A model generated the notes under the pieces. That model worked only from the letters and a program-made list of their open reading frames with translations. It was not told the DNA's origin and searched no databases. This document shows, piece by piece, positions 2,409 to 55,023 of a stretch of DNA of 64,000 bases. Position numbers and translations under genes: made by a program. Each line of letters opens with the position of its first letter. Position 1 is the stretch's first letter. Source of the DNA: an uncultured Chloroflexia bacterium (GTDB lineage Bacteria > Chloroflexota > Limnocylindria > Limnocylindrales > CSP1-4); the NCBI GenBank assembly GCA_963841545.1, contig CAWJDE010000013.1:830-64829 (forward strand). Reading direction: 5' to 3'.

Positions 2409-3262
2409 ACGTACCGGACGCCACCACCGCGCAACGCCTCGAGGCCGCCTGGTCCTCGCGCGTGCTCGCCAACCGCGAGCAGGCCGAGCGCCTTCGCGAG
2501 ACGCAGCTGCCCGACTTCTATGCCCCCGTCACGTCGCAGTTCGTGTCCGATCCCCGCCGGACCGACGAGCCGGCCCTCGACGTCCTGCGCGCCTCGGCCC
2601 GGCCCGATGAGGCCTGGCTGGACATCGGCGCGGGCGCCGGTCGGTACGCGCTGCCGCTCGCGCTGGCCGTGCGCGAGGTCGTGGCCGTCGAGCCGTCGCC
2701 GGGGATGCGCCAGGCGCTGCGCGCGGGCATCGCCGAGCACGGGATCGGCAACCTCCGGGTCGTGGCCGGCGCCTGGCCGGAGGCTGCGGCGCAGCTCGGG
2801 CCGATGCCCGCGGTCGACGTCGCGCTCATCGCCCACGTCGCCTACGACATCGAGCCCATCGAGCCCTTCCTCGACGCGATGGACGCCGCGGTCCGCGAGC
2901 GATGCATCGCGATCCTCACCGATCGCAGCCCGGCATCGGTCGCCGACCCGTTGTGGCCGCTGGTCCATGGCGAGGAGCGCGTGCCGTTGCCCGCGCTGCC
3001 CGAGCTGCTGGAGGTGCTCCTGGCCCGCGGCTGCCGGACCGAGGTGATCCGGGTCGAGCGACCACCGCGGACGTTCGACTCGGTCGACGCGCTCGCCGCC
3101 CTCCTGCGCCGGCAGCTGTTCATCGCCGAAGGTGGCGAGAAGGACCTGCACTTCCGGGCGATCCTGCCCGACCTGATCGCCCCGATCGATGGCGGCTGGA
3201 CGCTGGCCACGCCACCGGCGGGGTCGCTCGGGATCGTGACCTGGGCGCCGCGCCAGGCGTAG
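2405..3262 (+). CDS. class I SAM-dependent methyltransferase
   Basis: Motif-I-like DIGAGAGRYALPLA followed by VVAVEPSPGM. ATG at 2405 overlaps the upstream stop, implying translational coupling. Confidence 0.55.
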   Translation: MNVPDATTAQRLEAAWSSRVLANREQAERLRETQLPDFYAPVTSQFVSDPRRTDEPALDVLRASARPDEAWLDIGAGAGRYALPLALAVREVVAVEPSPGMRQALRAGIAEHGIGNLRVVAGAWPEAAAQLGPMPAVDVALIAHVAYDIEPIEPFLDAMDAAVRERCIAILTDRSPASVADPLWPLVHGEERVPLPALPELLEVLLARGCRTEVIRVERPPRTFDSVDALAALLRRQLFIAEGGEKDLHFRAILPDLIAPIDGGWTLATPPAGSLGIVTWAPRQA

Positions 3263-40702: not shown

Positions 40703-40790
40703 TGGTAGGCGAGGTCGGGATCGAACCGACACGTCCCTCACGGGACACCGGCTCCTAAGGCCGGCGCGTCTGCCATTCCGCCACTCGCCC
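40703..40790 (-). tRNA. tRNA-Leu (anticodon UAG), long variable arm, CCA encoded
   Basis: Reverse complement reads GGGCGAGUGGCGGAAUGGCAGACGCGCCGGCCUUAGGAGCCGG…GGUUCGAUCCCGACCUCGCCUACCA. D-loop, anticodon loop CUUAGGA, T-arm GGUUCGAUCC and a 7-bp acceptor stem with G1-U72. Confidence 0.8.
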
Positions 40791-48527: not shown

Positions 48528-49246
48528 GCCGGCGATCGACGCCGACGGCGGCCGTCGCCGCGCTGCCGCTGCTGGCGGTCGCGATCGGCGGCTGCATGCC
48601 GACCGCTGCCTCCTCGCAGGGTCAGGACATCTCGGATCTGTACACGGTGTTCCTGGTCGCCGGGATCGTGGTCGCGGCGGTCGTCTGGAGCCTGGTCACG
48701 TGGGCGATCCTCCGCTACCGCCGCCGTGACGACCGCCTCCCGGAGCAGATCGAGGGCAGCCTCCGGATCGAGGCCGTGTGGACCCTCATTCCCCTGATGA
48801 CCGTGCTCGTGCTGTTCCTGCTGACGGTCCGCACGCTCGCGGCCGTCGACACCGTGGAGGCCGGCGGGATCGACCTCCACGTCACGGCCTTCCGCTGGCA
48901 ATGGCAGGCCGACTACCCGGCGGGGGGCGTCAAGCTCATCGGCACGACCGATCAGCCGCTGGAGGTGGTCCTGCCGGTCGACACCCCGGTCCACGTCACC
49001 CTCGAATCGCTCGACGTCGACCACGCGTGGTACGTCCCGGCGTTCCTGTTCAAGCGTGACGCGATCCCTGGCAGACCCACCTTCTTCGACCTCCGGATCA
49101 CCGCCCCGGGGGTCTATCCGGGCGCCTGCGCCGAGTTCTGCGGCGTCGGCCATGACGACATGCTGTTCACGATCCGGGCCGTCGACCAGGCCACCTTCGA
49201 GCGCTGGCTCGCCGATCGGGCGGCCGGTGGGAGCGCAGCCCCATGA
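48524..49246 (+). CDS. ctaC: cytochrome c oxidase subunit II
   Basis: CuA centre motif HAWYVP…CAEFCGVGH with N-terminal TM helices. ATGA overlap with qcrB. Confidence 0.85.
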   Translation: MSRRSTPTAAVAALPLLAVAIGGCMPTAASSQGQDISDLYTVFLVAGIVVAAVVWSLVTWAILRYRRRDDRLPEQIEGSLRIEAVWTLIPLMTVLVLFLLTVRTLAAVDTVEAGGIDLHVTAFRWQWQADYPAGGVKLIGTTDQPLEVVLPVDTPVHVTLESLDVDHAWYVPAFLFKRDAIPGRPTFFDLRITAPGVYPGACAEFCGVGHDDMLFTIRAVDQATFERWLADRAAGGSAAP

Positions 49247-50922
49247 CCGCGATCGACGCACCCCGCGTCACCCTGCCCGTGGCCACCGCGCCGCGGGTGA
49301 CCCTGCTGGAGTGGCTGACGACCACGGACCACAAGCGGATCGGCGCGCTGTACATCACCGCGGCGTTCGGGTTTGCGCTCGTCGGCGGTGCGATCGCCGA
49401 GCTGATCCGGCTCGAGCTCGCGGCGCCCGGCCAGCAGCTGGTCGACGCTTCGACCTACGACCAGCTGTTCACCGTCCACGGCACGCTGATGCTGCTGTTC
49501 TTTGCCGGCCCGCTTGCGATCGGGTTCGCCAACGCGATCATGCCGCTCCAGATCGGTGCCGCGGACATGTCGTTCCCCCGCCTCAACGCCCTCTCGTTCT
49601 GGCTGTTCCTGTTCGGCGGCCTGATCGTGATGTCCGGGTTCCTGACCACGGGCGGCGCGGCTGCGGCCGGCTGGACCGGCTACCCGCCGCTGTCGGGGCC
49701 CGACTTCGCGCCAAGCGCGGGCATGGACCTGTGGATCGTGGGCGTCGCCCTGGTCGGGGCATCGGGGATCCTGGGCGCGGTCAACTTCCTGGTGACGATC
49801 TACACGCGGCGGGCGCCCGGGATGCGGATGTTCCGGATGCCCATGTTCACCTGGACGATCCTGGTCACCTCGATCCTGATCCTGTTCGCGTTCCCGTCGG
49901 TCACCGCCGCGCTCGCGATGCTGTTCATCGACCGCCACTTCGGCGGCGGCTTCTTCGACCCCACCCAGGGTGGCGACCCGGTCCTGTGGCAGCACCTGTT
50001 CTGGTTCTTCGGTCACCCGGAGGTGTACATCCTGGTGCTGCCGTACTTCGGAATCATGAGCGAGGTGGTGCCGGTCTTCTCGAGCAAGCCGCTGTTCGGC
50101 TACCGGCTGATGGTGTTCGCCGTGATCGCGATCGCCGGCCTGTCGATGGGCGTGTGGGCGCACCACATGTTCACCACCGGGCGGGTGGACCTGCCGTTCT
50201 TCTCGATCATGTCGCTGCTCATCGCCGTACCCACCGGGATCAAGATCTTCAACTGGACCGCGACGATGTTCCGTGGCAGCCTCCGGTTCTCCGTCCCGAT
50301 GCTGTGGGCGCTGGGGCTGCTGTACGTGTTCACGATCGGCGGCATCACGGGTGTCATGCTCGCCTCGCCGCCCATCGACTACCAGGCGCAGGACACGTAC
50401 TTCGTGGTCGCCCATCTGCACAACGTCCTGATCGGCGGCACGATGTTCGCGGGGTTCGCCGGGATCTACTTCTGGTTCCCCAAGCTCACCGGCCGGATGC
50501 TCGACGAGCGGCTCGGCCGGCTGCATTGGGCGTCCTGGATGATCGGGTTCGTGCTGACCTTCGTGCCCCAGTACCTGCTGGGCGCCGAGGGGATGCCCCG
50601 GCGCATCGCCGACTATCCCGCGGACCGTGGGTGGGCCGACCTCAACCTGCTCTCGACGATCGGGGCGCTGGTGCTGGCGGCCGGGATGCTGCCGTTCCTG
50701 CTGGCCGTGGTGCGGGCGATGCGTCGTCCGGCCGATGCCCCCGCCGACCCGTGGGGCGGCAACTCGCTCGAGTGGGCGACCTCGTCGCCGCCGCCGCACC
50801 ACAACTTCGACCGGCTGCCGCCGATCCGCTCCCTGCGACCCGTGTTCGACGCGCGCATGGAGGCACAGGCTGAGGCCGCGCGCGGGCTGGAGAGGGCCGG
50901 ACCGGGATCCGCCGATGCCTGA
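49243..50922 (+). CDS. ctaD: cytochrome c oxidase subunit I
   Basis: Canonical COX1 motifs (WFFGHPEVY, HHMF, etc.). Confidence 0.95.
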   Translation: MTAIDAPRVTLPVATAPRVTLLEWLTTTDHKRIGALYITAAFGFALVGGAIAELIRLELAAPGQQLVDASTYDQLFTVHGTLMLLFFAGPLAIGFANAIMPLQIGAADMSFPRLNALSFWLFLFGGLIVMSGFLTTGGAAAAGWTGYPPLSGPDFAPSAGMDLWIVGVALVGASGILGAVNFLVTIYTRRAPGMRMFRMPMFTWTILVTSILILFAFPSVTAALAMLFIDRHFGGGFFDPTQGGDPVLWQHLFWFFGHPEVYILVLPYFGIMSEVVPVFSSKPLFGYRLMVFAVIAIAGLSMGVWAHHMFTTGRVDLPFFSIMSLLIAVPTGIKIFNWTATMFRGSLRFSVPMLWALGLLYVFTIGGITGVMLASPPIDYQAQDTYFVVAHLHNVLIGGTMFAGFAGIYFWFPKLTGRMLDERLGRLHWASWMIGFVLTFVPQYLLGAEGMPRRIADYPADRGWADLNLLSTIGALVLAAGMLPFLLAVVRAMRRPADAPADPWGGNSLEWATSSPPPHHNFDRLPPIRSLRPVFDARMEAQAEAARGLERAGPGSADA

Positions 50923-51334
50923 GGAGGTGCGGTTCTTCGGGCGGCTGTCGGTCTATGCGCTGCTCGCCGGCGTCGTCTACTGGTTCATCAGCTACGAGAG
51001 CGCCGGCACGGTGCTGCTCATCGGGTTCGGGGTGGCCACCGGCGTCGCGTTCCTCGTCCTGCGAAGCTCCCGACAGCGGCCGTCACCGGTCGACGCCGCA
51101 GGCTCGCGTGATCCCGACGGTCCGTTCGGCGACGAATCGGCCCCCGTGCCGACCCGGAGCGCGGCGCCGCTCGCGGTTGGTCTCGGGCTCGCCCTGATCG
51201 GGCTCGCGGGTGCCTTCGGCCCGTGGTTCCTGGTGGTGGGGGCGATGCCGTTGCTGATCGGGGCCGCCGACTGGCTGCGTTCGGCCAGCCGCGAGCTCGA
51301 CCAGCGCACCGACGCCGATCGGGATCGCCGCTGA
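50915..51334 (+). CDS. ctaF: cytochrome c oxidase subunit IV (actinobacterial CtaF-like)
   Basis: 139 aa, 4 TM, with an 8-nt overlap with the ctaD stop. Size and position match actinobacterial CtaF. Confidence 0.55.
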   Translation: MPEEVRFFGRLSVYALLAGVVYWFISYESAGTVLLIGFGVATGVAFLVLRSSRQRPSPVDAAGSRDPDGPFGDESAPVPTRSAAPLAVGLGLALIGLAGAFGPWFLVVGAMPLLIGAADWLRSASRELDQRTDADRDRR

Positions 51335-51394: not shown

Positions 51395-52039
51395 ATGCAG
51401 CACGACGACCACGTCGCATTGATCCGGGACGGCGTTCTCGGCGCGGGGCCCCGGTGGCTCGAGCTCGGGGCCGGCGAGGGCGCGTTCACGCTCGCGCTGG
51501 CCGATCTGCTGGGGAACGATGGCCATATCGTGGCCCTCGATCGCGACCGGTGGCCGCTCACGGTGCTCGCCGACGCGGCGGCCGCCCGCTTTCCCGGCAC
51601 GCCCATCCACACCGTGACCGCCGACTTCACGCGTCAGCTGCCCGCCGGTCCGTTCGACGGCGTGCTGGCCGCGAACAGCCTCCACTTCGTGGCCGACCCG
51701 CGCCCGGTGCTGGACGTGATCCGGACCATCCTGTCCCCGCATGGCCGGCTCGTGCTCGTCGAGTACGACGCCGATCGCGGCAATCCCTACGTCCCGCACC
51801 CCATCTCGTTCCGGCGCTGGCGCGGGCTGGCAGGGGATGCGGGCTTCGGGCCGCCCTACCTGCTGCACCGGGTGCCCAGCCGGTTTCTCGGTTCCATCTA
51901 TGCGGCAGCGGCGGCCCGGGGCCCGGGGCCGGCCGCGGATCCGATCGGGCCGGTGACCGGATCCATCGCCGTCCGGCAGCGGGACCCCGCAGATCGCGTG
52001 GTACACTCCCGCCCTCACGGCGACGACCGAGAGGAGTAG
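51395..52039 (+). CDS. class I SAM-dependent methyltransferase
   Basis: Motif I WLELGAGEGAFTLALA followed by VALDRD. Confidence 0.6.
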   Translation: MQHDDHVALIRDGVLGAGPRWLELGAGEGAFTLALADLLGNDGHIVALDRDRWPLTVLADAAAARFPGTPIHTVTADFTRQLPAGPFDGVLAANSLHFVADPRPVLDVIRTILSPHGRLVLVEYDADRGNPYVPHPISFRRWRGLAGDAGFGPPYLLHRVPSRFLGSIYAAAAARGPGPAADPIGPVTGSIAVRQRDPADRVVHSRPHGDDREE

Positions 52040-52059
52040 GTCCGGAACGGCCCACAGCG

Positions 52060-52285
52060 AGCGCGGGACGGTGCGAGCCGCGCGGGGATGCCGGGTCCGA
52101 AGGTCGCTCGCGAGCCGTGCGGGTGGCGCCCGATAGCGCGCCAGGGAGGGTGCCGGAGCACGGCCGGCCGCGATACGCGGCGGGCACCGGCATCGAACCA
52201 GCAGGTGGTACCACGACCCCGTTCGTCCGCTGGACGACGGGGCGTTTTCGTCTCTGCGGGCGTGCGCCCGCGAACCGGGAGCGAC
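52060..52285 (+). promoter_or_regulatory. putative T-box riboswitch leader of valS (T-box sequence plus terminator/antiterminator)
   Basis: AGCAGGUGGUACCACGACC at about 52199-52217 matches the T-box consensus GGGUGGNACCGCG. It is immediately followed by an 11-bp GC hairpin (CCCCGuUCGUCC-GCUG-GGACGACGGGG) and a U-run (CGUUUUCGUCUCU). A GUC codon is present upstream at about 52101. Confidence 0.45.
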
Positions 52286-52287
52286 CG

Positions 52288-55023
52288 ATGACGAACTCGA
52301 CCGAACCTCCGGCCCCGACGCTCGCCAAGGCCTACGTCCCGGCCCAGTTCGAGCACGAGATCTACGAGCGGTGGCTGGCCGCCGACGTGTTCGCTCCGGA
52401 CGGCAGCGGGTCGACCGCCGATCCGGCGCTCGAGCCGTTCGTGATCATCCAGCCGCCGCCCAACGTGACCGGCAGCCTGCACCTCGGCCACGCGCAGCGG
52501 ACCACGGTCGAGGATCTGATGATCCGCCACGCGCGGATGCTCGGCCGGCCGACGCTGTTCCTGCCCGGGCTCGATCACGCCAGCATCGCCGCCCAGTTCG
52601 TGCTCGACGGCATCCTGGCAAGGGAGGGGCAGAGCCGGGCCACGCTGGGCCGGGAGCGCTATCTCGAGCGGATGCGCGCGTTCGTGGACGCGACGCGGAC
52701 GACCATCCTCACCCAGCAGCGGCGCGTCGGGGGCAGCTGCGACTGGGGCCGGCTGCGGTTCACGATGGACGAGGTGTCGGCGCGGGCCGTTCGCGAGGCC
52801 TTCGTGCGGCTGTTCCGGCGCGGCCTGGCGTACCGCTCCGAGGCGCTCATCAACTGGTGCCCCGGCTGCCACACCAGCGTCAGCGACCTCGAGGTGATCC
52901 CGACGCCCGAGCAGGGAACGATCTGGCGCGTCCGGTATCACCTGATCGACCCGGCGACCGGGCAGCCTGACCCGGGGGCGACGGTCACGGTCGCCACCAC
53001 CCGGCCCGAGACGATCCTGGGCGACACGGCGGTCGCCGTCCACCCCGAGGACGCGCGCTACACGGCGCTCGTCGGACGCCTCGTCCGCATCCCGTTCGTC
53101 GATCGCGACGTCCCGATCATCGCGGATCCGATCGTCGACCCCGACTTCGGCACGGGTGCCGTCAAGATCACGCCGGCCCACGACCACGACGACCACGACA
53201 CGGGCCGCCGCCACGGGCTGGCCATGCCCACCATCCTCGATGACGCAGCCCGGGTGGCCGGCACCGGCACCGACTACGACGGCCTCGATCGCTACGACGC
53301 CCGCCGGCGGATCCTGGCCGACCTTGCGCTGCGCGGCGATCTCGCGGGCGAGCAGCCCCACGAGATGGTCATCGGCCGCTGCCAGCGGAGCAACGACGTC
53401 GTCGAGCCGCGGCTCAAGACGCAATGGTTCGTGCGTACCGGACCCCTGGCGGCGGCTGCGCTGGAGGCCACCCGCTCCGGCCGGACGCGGATCCTGCCCG
53501 AACGGATGGACAAGGTCTGGGAGCACTGGATGACCAACATCCGCGACTGGAACGTGTCGCGGCAGCTGTGGTGGGGCCACCGCATCCCGGCCTGGTACTG
53601 CCCCGACGGCCACGTGACGGTCAGCGCCGATCCCGAGGGCCCGACGGCCTGCGAGGCGTGCGCCCGGCCGGCCACGGAGCTGGTCCAGGACCCCGACATC
53701 TTCGACACCTGGTTCAGCTCGGGGCTGTGGCCGTTCTCGACGCTCGGCTGGCCGGAGGCGACCGACGACCTGGCTCGCTTCTACCCGGGCTCGGTGATGG
53801 AGACGGGCTACGACATCCTGTTCTTCTGGGTCGCCCGGATGATGATGCTGGGCATCGAGCTGACCGGCGAGATCCCGTTCCACACGGTCTACCTGTCGGG
53901 CCTCATCCGCGACCCGTACGGCGCGAAGATGTCCAAGACCAAGGGCAACGTGGTCGATCCGCTGGGCACGATCGACGAGATGGGCGCCGACGCGCTGCGG
54001 TTCGCGGTGGTCCACGGGACGACGCCGGGCAGCGACCAGCGGTTCGGCAGCGCCAAGGTCGAGAACGCCCGCAACTTCGCCAACAAGCTGTGGAACGCGA
54101 CCCGCTTCGTGGTCGGTGCCCGGCCGGACTCGGTGCCGGAGGGAGCCGAGCGCCGGCTTCCCGACCCCGCGCTGCTCGGTCCCGCGGAACGCTGGGTCCT
54201 GTCGCGCACGGCGGCGACGGTCGCAGCGGTGAACCGGGCGCTCGCCGGCTACAGCTTCGGCGAGGTCACCCGCCTGCTGTACGAGGCGATCTGGAGCGAG
54301 TACTGCGACTGGGGCCTGGAGCTTGCCAAGGTGCGCCTGGCGGACGGCTCGCTGTCCGACGAGCGCCGCGAGGCCACCTGGTGGGCGCTGGTCGAGGCGC
54401 TCGACACGTACCTGCGGCTGCTCCATCCGGTGATGCCGTTCGTGACCGAGCGACTGTGGCAGGCCCTGCCGCATCGGGCCACGGACCCGGACCTCCTGAT
54501 CGTCGCGCGGTGGCCCGGGGTGGGGGAGCGCGACGAGGCGATCGAGGCGCAGGTGGGCGCCCTGGTGGACGTGGTGCGCGCGATCCGGAACGCCCGCGCA
54601 GAGGCGAAGCTCGAGCCGGGCGCCTACCTGCCGCTCGACGTGTACGCCGAGCCCGAGCTCGGTGCGACGCTCGAGGCGTTGCGGCCCGCCCTCGAGCGGC
54701 TGGCCCGGGCGCGACCCCTTCGCCGGCACCTCACGCCGGAAGACCTCCACGCCACCGCCGGGGGCGGCCTCGCCGTGATCACCGGCCCGGTCGAGGCGAT
54801 CGTTGGGCTTGCGGATGCCGATCCGGGGAAGGCCGACGCGGACCGGGCACGGCTCGAGAAGGAGCTCGCAGACGCCCGCAGGCTCCTCGAGTCGGCCCGC
54901 GCCCGGCTCGCGGACACCGCCTTCCTCGCCCGGGCGCCCGCGGCGATCGTGAACGGCGCCCGGGTGCGGGAGGCCGAGCTCGCCGATCAGGTCGAACGGC
55001 TCTCGGCGCGCCTGGAGCGGTGA
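52288..55023 (+). CDS. valS: valine--tRNA ligase
   Basis: HIGH motif PNVTGSLHLGHA, KMSKS motif KMSKTKGN and a C-terminal coiled coil. The first 278 codons of the track ORF are out-of-context R-rich extension. Confidence 0.95.
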   Translation: MTNSTEPPAPTLAKAYVPAQFEHEIYERWLAADVFAPDGSGSTADPALEPFVIIQPPPNVTGSLHLGHAQRTTVEDLMIRHARMLGRPTLFLPGLDHASIAAQFVLDGILAREGQSRATLGRERYLERMRAFVDATRTTILTQQRRVGGSCDWGRLRFTMDEVSARAVREAFVRLFRRGLAYRSEALINWCPGCHTSVSDLEVIPTPEQGTIWRVRYHLIDPATGQPDPGATVTVATTRPETILGDTAVAVHPEDARYTALVGRLVRIPFVDRDVPIIADPIVDPDFGTGAVKITPAHDHDDHDTGRRHGLAMPTILDDAARVAGTGTDYDGLDRYDARRRILADLALRGDLAGEQPHEMVIGRCQRSNDVVEPRLKTQWFVRTGPLAAAALEATRSGRTRILPERMDKVWEHWMTNIRDWNVSRQLWWGHRIPAWYCPDGHVTVSADPEGPTACEACARPATELVQDPDIFDTWFSSGLWPFSTLGWPEATDDLARFYPGSVMETGYDILFFWVARMMMLGIELTGEIPFHTVYLSGLIRDPYGAKMSKTKGNVVDPLGTIDEMGADALRFAVVHGTTPGSDQRFGSAKVENARNFANKLWNATRFVVGARPDSVPEGAERRLPDPALLGPAERWVLSRTAATVAAVNRALAGYSFGEVTRLLYEAIWSEYCDWGLELAKVRLADGSLSDERREATWWALVEALDTYLRLLHPVMPFVTERLWQALPHRATDPDLLIVARWPGVGERDEAIEAQVGALVDVVRAIRNARAEAKLEPGAYLPLDVYAEPELGATLEALRPALERLARARPLRRHLTPEDLHATAGGGLAVITGPVEAIVGLADADPGKADADRARLEKELADARRLLESARARLADTAFLARAPAAIVNGARVREAELADQVERLSARLER

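Follow-up and report, generated by a model that had tools for sequence, protein, structure and literature searches.

In the window analysed here (a stretch of 64,000 nucleotides (nt) of contig CAWJDE010000013.1), the gene valS is preceded by an open reading frame (ORF) for an S-adenosylmethionine (SAM) methyltransferase that is read in the same direction (Table 1). Between the two genes, and partly within the tail of the methyltransferase ORF, lies a leader in which a probable promoter element, a long Stem I with a valine codon in its specifier loop, a Stem IIA/B pseudoknot, a long Stem III, an antiterminator overlapping an intrinsic terminator, and a separate Shine-Dalgarno sequence follow one another. 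This leader is very probably a T-box riboswitch specific for valine, through which valS is regulated by attenuation of transcription. The assignment is carried by the T-box motifs, the conservation and covariation of the helices, a specifier that codes for valine only, the constant association with valS, and a pair of mutually exclusive helices with their energies.

Table 1. Features of the valS locus, with their positions in the window, strand and basis.
Feature	Position	Strand	Basis and remarks
SAM-methyltransferase ORF, upstream gene	51395-52039	+	Pfam Methyltransf_11/12/23/25/31, residues 16-148 only
Probable promoter -10 element with TG extension, TGGTACACT (TGnTAnnnT)	51999-52007	+	conservation
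Stem I	52016-52119	+	base helix CACGGC/GCCGUG; RF00230 7-103 match; helix pairing in relatives
K-turn of Stem I	bulge GAC 52022-24; G52025-A52113, A52026-G52112	+	invariant or nearly so (77 leaders), between compensated helices
Second helix of Stem I	52028-31/52107-10	+	98.7% paired (77 leaders)
Specifier loop	5' side AGGAGUA 52032-52038; 3' side GAA-G-GUC-G 52099-52106	+	S-turn motifs AGUA/GAA conserved
Specifier codon GUC (Val)	52103-52105; stacking purine G52106	+	codon positions 1-2 invariant in relatives
AG bulge ACAGCGA of Stem I	52054-60	+	AG.GA (52056-60) conserved
Distal loop GACGGUGCGAG of Stem I	52067-77	+	.UG..A (52072-76) conserved
Stem IIA/B pseudoknot, 23 nt	52120-52142; IIA 52120-22/52130-32, IIB 52125-29/52138-42	+	pairing, covariation in IIB
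F-box CCGAUA	52130-35	+	CCG.UA conserved in relatives
Purine string AGGGAGG, long Stem III, 3' GAA flank	52143-52198; base helix 52149-56/52187-94, inner hairpin 52165-52181	+	per-sequence folding
Antiterminator	52199-52232; A1 52199-202 and 52204-05 with 52227-32; A2 52213-16/52223-26	+	-6.2 kcal/mol (canonical fold); RF00230 189-214
T-box bulge UGGUACC, 7 nt between A1 and A2	52206-12	+	conserved motif
Intrinsic terminator	52217-52255; CCCCGUUCGUCC 52217-28 / GGACGACGGGG 52232-42, loop GCU, tail CGUUUUCGUCUCU	+	11 base pairs (bp), one bulged U, -18.0 kcal/mol
Extra GC hairpin GCGGGC-GUGC-GCCCGC, 6 bp	52256-52271	+	sequence; between terminator tail and Shine-Dalgarno
Shine-Dalgarno GGGAG	52277-81	+	6 nt before ATG; 35 nt downstream of terminator stem, outside every T-box helix
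valS, valyl-tRNA synthetase, 911 aa, regulated gene	52288-55023	+	Pfam tRNA-synt_1 (2e-117), Anticodon_1, Val_tRNA-synt_C; identical gene call on source contig

The similarity to known T-boxes is most evident in Stem I. In a scan at an E-value threshold, positions 7-103 of the Rfam T-box family RF00230, which comprise the whole of Stem I, match 52020-52115 with 31.6 bits (E 2.4e-5 locally; E 0.0031 for the entire 64-kb window against all 4227 Rfam families), and positions 189-214, corresponding to the T-box bulge and helix A2, match 52204-52228 with 11.5 bits. In this alignment GCGACGA...CGAGC is the kink-turn (K-turn), AGGAGUA and GAA form the S-turn of the specifier loop, ACAGCGA is the AG bulge and GGUGCGA the distal loop, and GUC is set at the codon position with a purine next to it. 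An earlier note on this DNA, which had recognised a T-box-like leader before valS and proposed a scan with RF00230, is thus supported in part: Stem I is significant by its E-value, but both pieces lie far under the gathering threshold of 93 bits, which is a curated score cut-off and not a biological feature of the family. The shortfall can be ascribed to the missing Stem II and to the long, GC-rich Stem III. Matches above the gathering score have been obtained for all three Firmicute valS loci (100-146 bits) and for the valS locus of a Chloroflexales metagenome-assembled genome (MAG), L076 (113 bits), and for none of 13 actinobacterial valS loci. Taken by itself, the 9-nt core is at chance level, since GGTGGNACCRCG with one mismatch gives 8 hits where 8.9 are expected; significance derives instead from the E-value of Stem I and from the conservation of the leader upstream of valS in more than 90 independent sequences. 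The identity of the element as a T-box is indicated mostly by comparison with its relatives, and less by Rfam. No second T-box was detected elsewhere in the window or in the 201 loci collected for comparison.

The same leader is carried by 12 of the 13 closest full-length genome loci. In addition, at least 120 stretches of metagenome contigs match a 20-mer from the T-box region exactly, 80 of which are listed as loci; valS lies downstream in all 74 metagenome loci with enough DNA among the matches listed. For the structural comparison, 77 distinct leaders were aligned with MAFFT, and the structure in its antiterminator form, including the pseudoknot, was written on this alignment, to which the counts given below refer. 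Its columns that are invariant or nearly so fall on the family's functional motifs: both sheared G-A pairs in the K-turn, A.GAGUA and GAA in the specifier loop, AG.GA in the AG bulge, UG..A in the distal loop, CCG.UA in the F-box and UGGUACC in the T-box bulge. Standard pairs occupy 82.3% of the cells, as against 30-46% when the 3' partners are slid by one to three columns, and 31 pairs are changed on both sides versus 21.7 in column shuffles, a value of 31 being reached by none of 500 shuffles. The base of Stem I, its second helix, its distal helix and IIB all show clear covariation. For example, the base helix of Stem I is 92.9% paired and shows compensatory changes in five of its six pairs, such as CACGGC/GCCGUG replaced by CAUCGC/GCGAUG in locus L008, and the distal helix, located between the AG bulge and the distal loop, is 95% paired and covaries too. 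Pair counts in the variable middle of Stem I and in Stem III (61% and 43%) understate the real pairing because MAFFT misaligns these parts, and folding of each sequence alone was used there.

Both the position and the variation of the specifier point to valine. As the earlier note had proposed, a GUC codon lies 100 nt before the core, and a Stem I carrying it in a specifier loop does form and is conserved in relatives. Within the codon the G and the U are fixed, and the third base varies, as does the base that precedes the codon: GUC is found in 59 leaders (plus two with a 1-nt deletion), GUA in 14 and GUU in two, followed by G in 64 leaders and by A in 11. The strongest single argument for a valine specifier is therefore that the codon varies only synonymously and that the gene downstream is invariably valS. 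The valS T-boxes of Firmicutes and Chloroflexales that pass the Rfam threshold can be aligned with the leader of the window and have the same GAAGGUC or GAAGGUA context. At the other end of Stem I, the conserved motifs of the AG bulge and the distal loop would provide a platform for the tRNA elbow, the interdigitated T-loop fold itself being predicted from these motifs. Some variation in length has been observed around these elements: the distal Stem I hairpin is longer in the subclade with a GUA specifier, and in three leaders (L137, L140, L151) the 5' strand of Stem I is enlarged, ahead of the AG bulge, by additional hairpins of 25-60 nt; in all of them the core motifs are unaffected.

Downstream, the stretch AGCAGGUGGUACCACGACC (52200-52218) holds the core GGUGGUACC at 52204-52212, and the hairpin CCCCGUUCGUCC/GGACGACGGGG with its U-rich tail follows at 52217-52242, where it is reported by a terminator scan too; both had been noted before and both are present. 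The 5' arm of the terminator reuses the loop of A2 and the 3' strands of A2 and A1, residues 52217-52232 being common to both folds, so that the antiterminator/terminator arrangement claimed for this leader is real: two mutually exclusive helices, of -6.2 and -18.0 kcal/mol respectively, stand before valS. These energies are within the ranges compiled in TBDB for transcriptional T-boxes (antiterminator -7.4 +/- 4.2, terminator -19.5 +/- 7.9 kcal/mol). A1 and A2 are paired in 100% of the leaders, and a double-strand change in A1 is seen in the independent loci L012 and L013 (CGAAGG/CCUUCG versus CAGC(A)GG/CCGCUG); most of the antiterminator stretch served as the search pattern for L081-L160, and its invariance in these loci is uninformative. 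The tails of 76 relatives contain three to seven U in 9 nt, compared with 9.4% U in the rest of the leaders. A GGAG-type site lies 10-30 nt past the terminator stem in the relatives as well. Transcription attenuation is favoured over sequestration of the ribosome-binding site because the Shine-Dalgarno sequence is outside every helix and well past the stem, the tails are U-rich and the energies are in the TBDB range. The additional GC hairpin that separates the terminator tail from the Shine-Dalgarno sequence, and that leaves the latter outside, is missing from most relatives, although L149 has an insert resembling it, and is probably lineage-specific. Two particular cases were noticed in this part of the leader. 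In L003 (2905-2913) the bulge is UGGCACC instead of UGGUACC, the only such case among the genome loci, which predicts a G discriminator base in its tRNA-Val, or else a mismatch. In L009 (2740-3000) about 330 nt separate the T-box from the conserved start of ValS downstream, and this stretch contains tandem CGGCCGACGGCCGACC(T/C)GCGG-like repeats; it represents either an insertion of repeats or an extension of ValS at its N-terminus.

By analogy with the characterised members of the family, from which tRNA binding, charge sensing and termination itself are inferred, the leader may work as follows. Transcription would start a few nt after the conserved -10 element, and the nascent leader would fold a full-length Stem I, in which the GUC codon would pair with the anticodon of tRNA-Val while the elbow of the tRNA would be stacked upon by the platform that the AG bulge and the distal loop form. 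If the tRNA is uncharged, its 3' ACCA would pair with the UGGU of the T-box bulge (52206-09), and attenuation would be released. If it is aminoacylated, the stronger terminator (52217-52242 with the U-rich tail) would form and transcription would stop before valS.

Of the canonical T-box elements only Stem II is missing from this leader, and the IIA/B pseudoknot next to it has been retained. This variant architecture, which the earlier note does not mention, is what is unusual in an element that is otherwise of a known kind. IIB is 99% paired, and one of its pairs is GC in 46 leaders, AU in 28 and CG in two; further compensatory variants of this helix include GAUGC/GCAUC, GGCAC/GUGCC and CCGC/GCGG. 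IIA, with only 3 bp, is 93% paired and conserved, without covariation. Judged by these substitutions, the pseudoknot is retained and under selection. The corresponding region of the window is homologous to the segment of the Chloroflexales leader L076 that Rfam aligns with the IIA/F-box part of RF00230. Rfam also recognises a Stem II helix in L076, which has a GAA/AGUA S-turn of its own and separates Stem I from the CGG...CCGUUA pseudoknot; exactly at this Stem II, a direct alignment leaves a gap of about 34 nt in the Limnocylindria leaders. In 77 out of 77 leaders the CGG of IIA comes 0-1 nt after the 3' strand of Stem I (in the window GCCGUG, with its last base at 52119), and a second GAA/AGUA pair, as expected for the S-turn of Stem II, was not found between Stem I and the pseudoknot in any of them. 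A literature search that left aside two large comparative surveys from 2008-2009 retrieved no description of a T-box lacking Stem II and containing the pseudoknot.

Stem III is also peculiar. It is unusually long (about 46 nt), and in all 76 relatives in which it could be anchored, each folded alone, its stretch forms one or a few hairpins that a base helix closes. It is preceded in the leaders by GAGAG or AGGGAGG and followed by GAA, and these purine flanks fit the scheme 5'-RRRxG-Stem III-AA-3' (PMC7583486). The tip of Stem III shows a GAUGA-type pentaloop in 58 of the 77 leaders (exactly GAUGA in 52; alignment columns about 290-300), including L001, L004-L008 and most of L081-L160, with a closing pair that alternates between G-C (28) and C-G (24). 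The tip in the window (52165-52181) is CCGCG-AUA-CGCGG, with no such pentaloop. That a loop is conserved here, although the stem normally varies, suggests a tertiary contact. Stem III of L007, L129 and L151 holds additional hairpins of 25-60 nt, which leave the core motifs unaffected.

A number of results weigh against a T-box attenuator at this locus. At the gathering score, RF00230 has no match in the 64-kb window, where a tRNA-Leu alone is found. The minimum free energy (MFE) of the whole leader is not better than that of shuffled sequences (z = -0.85), a value in which several domains are mixed. The U tract of the window is short and interrupted (four U). The terminator and the A1 and A2 helices are almost invariant, so that covariation neither supports nor contradicts them, and part of the invariance of the terminator and A2 is imposed by the search pattern. 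No tRNA-Val gene occurs in the window or in 47 related loci against which the anticodon and the discriminator base could be checked. Finally, Stem II has been described as needed outside the glycine T-boxes (PMC7583486) and is absent here; function can therefore not simply be assumed from the precedents of Class I, the published class with a long Stem I and a Stem II domain.

Four other explanations have been considered in the light of these results. A mere chance resemblance in GC-rich intergenic DNA, with no RNA element at all, might be argued from the missing match at the gathering score, the chance rate of the one-mismatch core and the non-significant z-score of the fold. This idea has practically no probability left: it is already refuted by the comparative data, given the window-wide E-value of Stem I and a covarying architecture that recurs in 77 distinct leaders, always before valS. 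Equally negligible is the chance that the T-box reads another tRNA in a different specifier frame, for instance GGU (Gly) at 52102-04, directly after GAA. The window sequence GAAGGUCG does hold GGU as well as GUC; however, the base after GAA is C in 49 leaders, G in 24 and U in two, which would give CGU, GGU or UGU and three different amino acids, whereas GUN is constant and the gene is always valS. The Rfam alignment likewise has GUC at the codon position, before a purine, and the glycine frame is rejected by the variation of the relatives at this base. More attention is deserved by a translational T-box, as in actinobacterial ileS, in which 52217-52242 would be a sequestrator of the ribosome-binding site and not a terminator. 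The U tract is weak, and interrupted in many relatives, and GC-rich lineages with T-boxes that regulate translation likewise lack strong U tracts (PMC7583486, PMC10482949). Nevertheless, the Shine-Dalgarno sequence pairs with no T-box helix, the corresponding site of the relatives is also past the stem, the tails are strongly enriched in U relative to the leader, and a full-length Stem I with an elbow platform is typical of transcriptional T-boxes (PMC7583486). Sequestration is rejected on this geometry, in the window and in the relatives, and a translational mode is improbable.

The last alternative concerns function and not identity: the leader might be a decayed, non-switching remnant that lost productive binding of tRNA-Val together with Stem II, and that now acts as a constitutive leader or a partial terminator. 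This explanation draws on the absence of Stem II, which is reported to be important in non-glycine T-boxes, where tRNA is bound more weakly by orders of magnitude once parts of this domain are deleted (PMC7583486). Yet all other functional motifs are conserved to the single nucleotide in more than 90 sequences, although the ValS proteins encoded with them are now only 54-88% identical, compensatory changes maintain the helices, and the specifier varies only synonymously. A relic would not persist under such selection on motifs and helices, and a remnant is thus very improbable, which leaves the valine-specific attenuator of valS as the reading to be preferred.

When this valine T-box is compared with the known types, it matches no published class description exactly. 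Four classes have been published (PMC10482949). The window leader resembles Class I (RF00230; tyrS of B. subtilis; the valS leaders L027, L031, L025 and L076) in its long Stem I, which includes the K-turn, a specifier loop with S-turn, the AG bulge and the distal loop, and also in the GAAGGUC-purine context, the F-box pseudoknot, the purine-flanked Stem III, the UGGUACC bulge, the overlapping antiterminator and terminator, and valS as the regulated gene. It differs from Class I in lacking the Stem II helix and its S-turn, in the linker of 0-1 nt between Stem I and IIA, in the length of Stem III and in its Rfam score (31.6 + 11.5 bits versus 100-146 in the Class I valS leaders). Class II, the glycine-specific type of glyQS, likewise combines a long Stem I with elbow platform, no Stem II helix and a transcriptional terminator/antiterminator. 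In that class, however, a single-stranded linker replaces the whole Stem II domain, including the pseudoknot (PMC10482949, PMC7583486), whereas the leader of the window has a valine specifier (GUC/GUA/GUU, containing an A-U pair) and keeps the IIA/B pseudoknot with its F-box under selection. Classes III and IV have a short Stem I and require Stem II (PMC10482949). Their ileS members in Actinobacteria (N. farcinica, M. tuberculosis) resemble the window leader in the GC-rich host, the IIA/B pseudoknot with a CCGNNA-type F-box and the T-box bulge, but differ in a short Stem I devoid of the distal platform, a specifier in the apical loop, the required Stem II and a sequestered Shine-Dalgarno sequence (PMC10482949), none of which is found here. 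The only other natural uncoupling of the two parts of the Stem II domain that was found is the glyQS T-box of S. pyogenes, although the combination there is the opposite, with a Stem II-like helix and no recognisable IIA/B pseudoknot in a glycine T-box (PMC11404447). It is conceivable, and is put forward only tentatively, that the Limnocylindria valS leaders represent an undescribed architectural class of T-boxes, defined by a long Stem I with elbow platform, a IIA/B pseudoknot, no Stem II and a codon containing an A-U pair.

Regarding the host, the earlier note had assumed an actinobacterium, in which T-box control of valS would be uncommon; neither the assumption nor the rarity holds. In a search of 185,579 species genomes the closest ValS proteins are those of Chloroflexota MAGs labelled Limnocylindria/Limnocylindrales or Chloroflexia, with 54-79% identity, and the same comparison gives only about 43-46% for Streptomyces and other Actinobacteria; the actinobacterial premise is therefore wrong. 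Every leader of the window type comes likewise from Chloroflexota, in MAGs of Ca. Limnocylindria/Limnocylindrales, so that the nearest relatives of both ValS and leader are found in this group. The window itself is identical to a part of a metagenome contig of 2.65 Mb in ENA (ERZ25039539 contig_9582). T-boxes had been reported in Chloroflexi before (PMC2494555; TBDB preprint 10.1101/2020.06.17.157016), and valS is among the genes most widely under T-box control (PMC2494555), as also illustrated by the Chloroflexales and Firmicute valS leaders that pass Rfam. Such control is not universal in the phylum: in a more distant Chloroflexi bin (L010, ValS 58% identical) a clpX-like gene lies directly upstream of valS and there is no T-box (2550-3000).

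The element extends 5' of the interval 52040-52287 in which it had been reported: it is indeed present in this interval, but the interval does not cover its full extent, because the promoter and the first 24 nt of Stem I are inside the tail of the methyltransferase ORF. In all 77 leaders of the alignment the TGnTAnnnT motif keeps a fixed distance of 8-11 nt from the Stem I base downstream, an invariance that is partly due to construction, as this motif set the start of the alignment. Five untruncated leaders lack the exact motif, and four of them show TA(G/C)ACT in that position instead. A sigma-70 promoter scan of the window found nothing, and no -35 is recognisable; on the conservation of the motif, it is probably the -10 element of the valS promoter. 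The methyltransferase ORF is a single gene of 214 amino acids in the gene calls of the source contig, and runs about 45 codons beyond its Pfam domain, across the promoter and into Stem I (especially 51900-52039), its TAG stop (52037-39) sharing two bases with the conserved AGUA of the specifier loop. In L006 an ORF whose C-terminal sequence is similar comes to its stop about 100 nt upstream of the promoter, so that the gene call in the window may be too long, or the tail a read-on peculiar to the lineage. The methyltransferase gene is directly preceded, at 49243-51334 (+), by COX1 (cytochrome c oxidase subunit I) and by a gene whose product has a Cyt_c_ox_IV domain (PF12270). The sole other Rfam/ARAGORN match in the window is a tRNA-Leu (anticodon TAG) at 40703-40790 (-); tRNA-Leu(TAG) is also found within a few kb of valS in L083, L090, L092, L131 and L144, the synteny being conserved.

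As a regulator the leader is ordinary: valS is commonly under the control of a T-box, and Chloroflexi are known to possess such elements. However, the T-boxes of an abundant uncultured lineage of soil and freshwater fall here under the Rfam threshold, and riboswitch censuses therefore under-count them. Its architecture is of wider interest as a natural deletion of Stem II that keeps the pseudoknot in a non-glycine T-box. According to the reviews, Stem II is dispensable only because the GGC-GCC pairing of glycine is strong, and the pseudoknot, described as stacking on Stem II and organising the docking of Stem I and Stem II, has a precise role that needs further experiments (PMC7583486, PMC10482949). 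If the Limnocylindria leaders do form a class of their own, the pseudoknot would have a role independent of Stem II, either stacking on the base of Stem I or positioning the purine string of Stem III on the discriminator, as has been speculated (PMC7583486), and the enlarged Stem III may replace the lateral stabilisation of the codon-anticodon helix by Stem II. With about 80 natural variants, the clade is a ready-made system for the study of the pseudoknot in the absence of Stem II and of the reading of GUC and GUA without the S-turn clamp.

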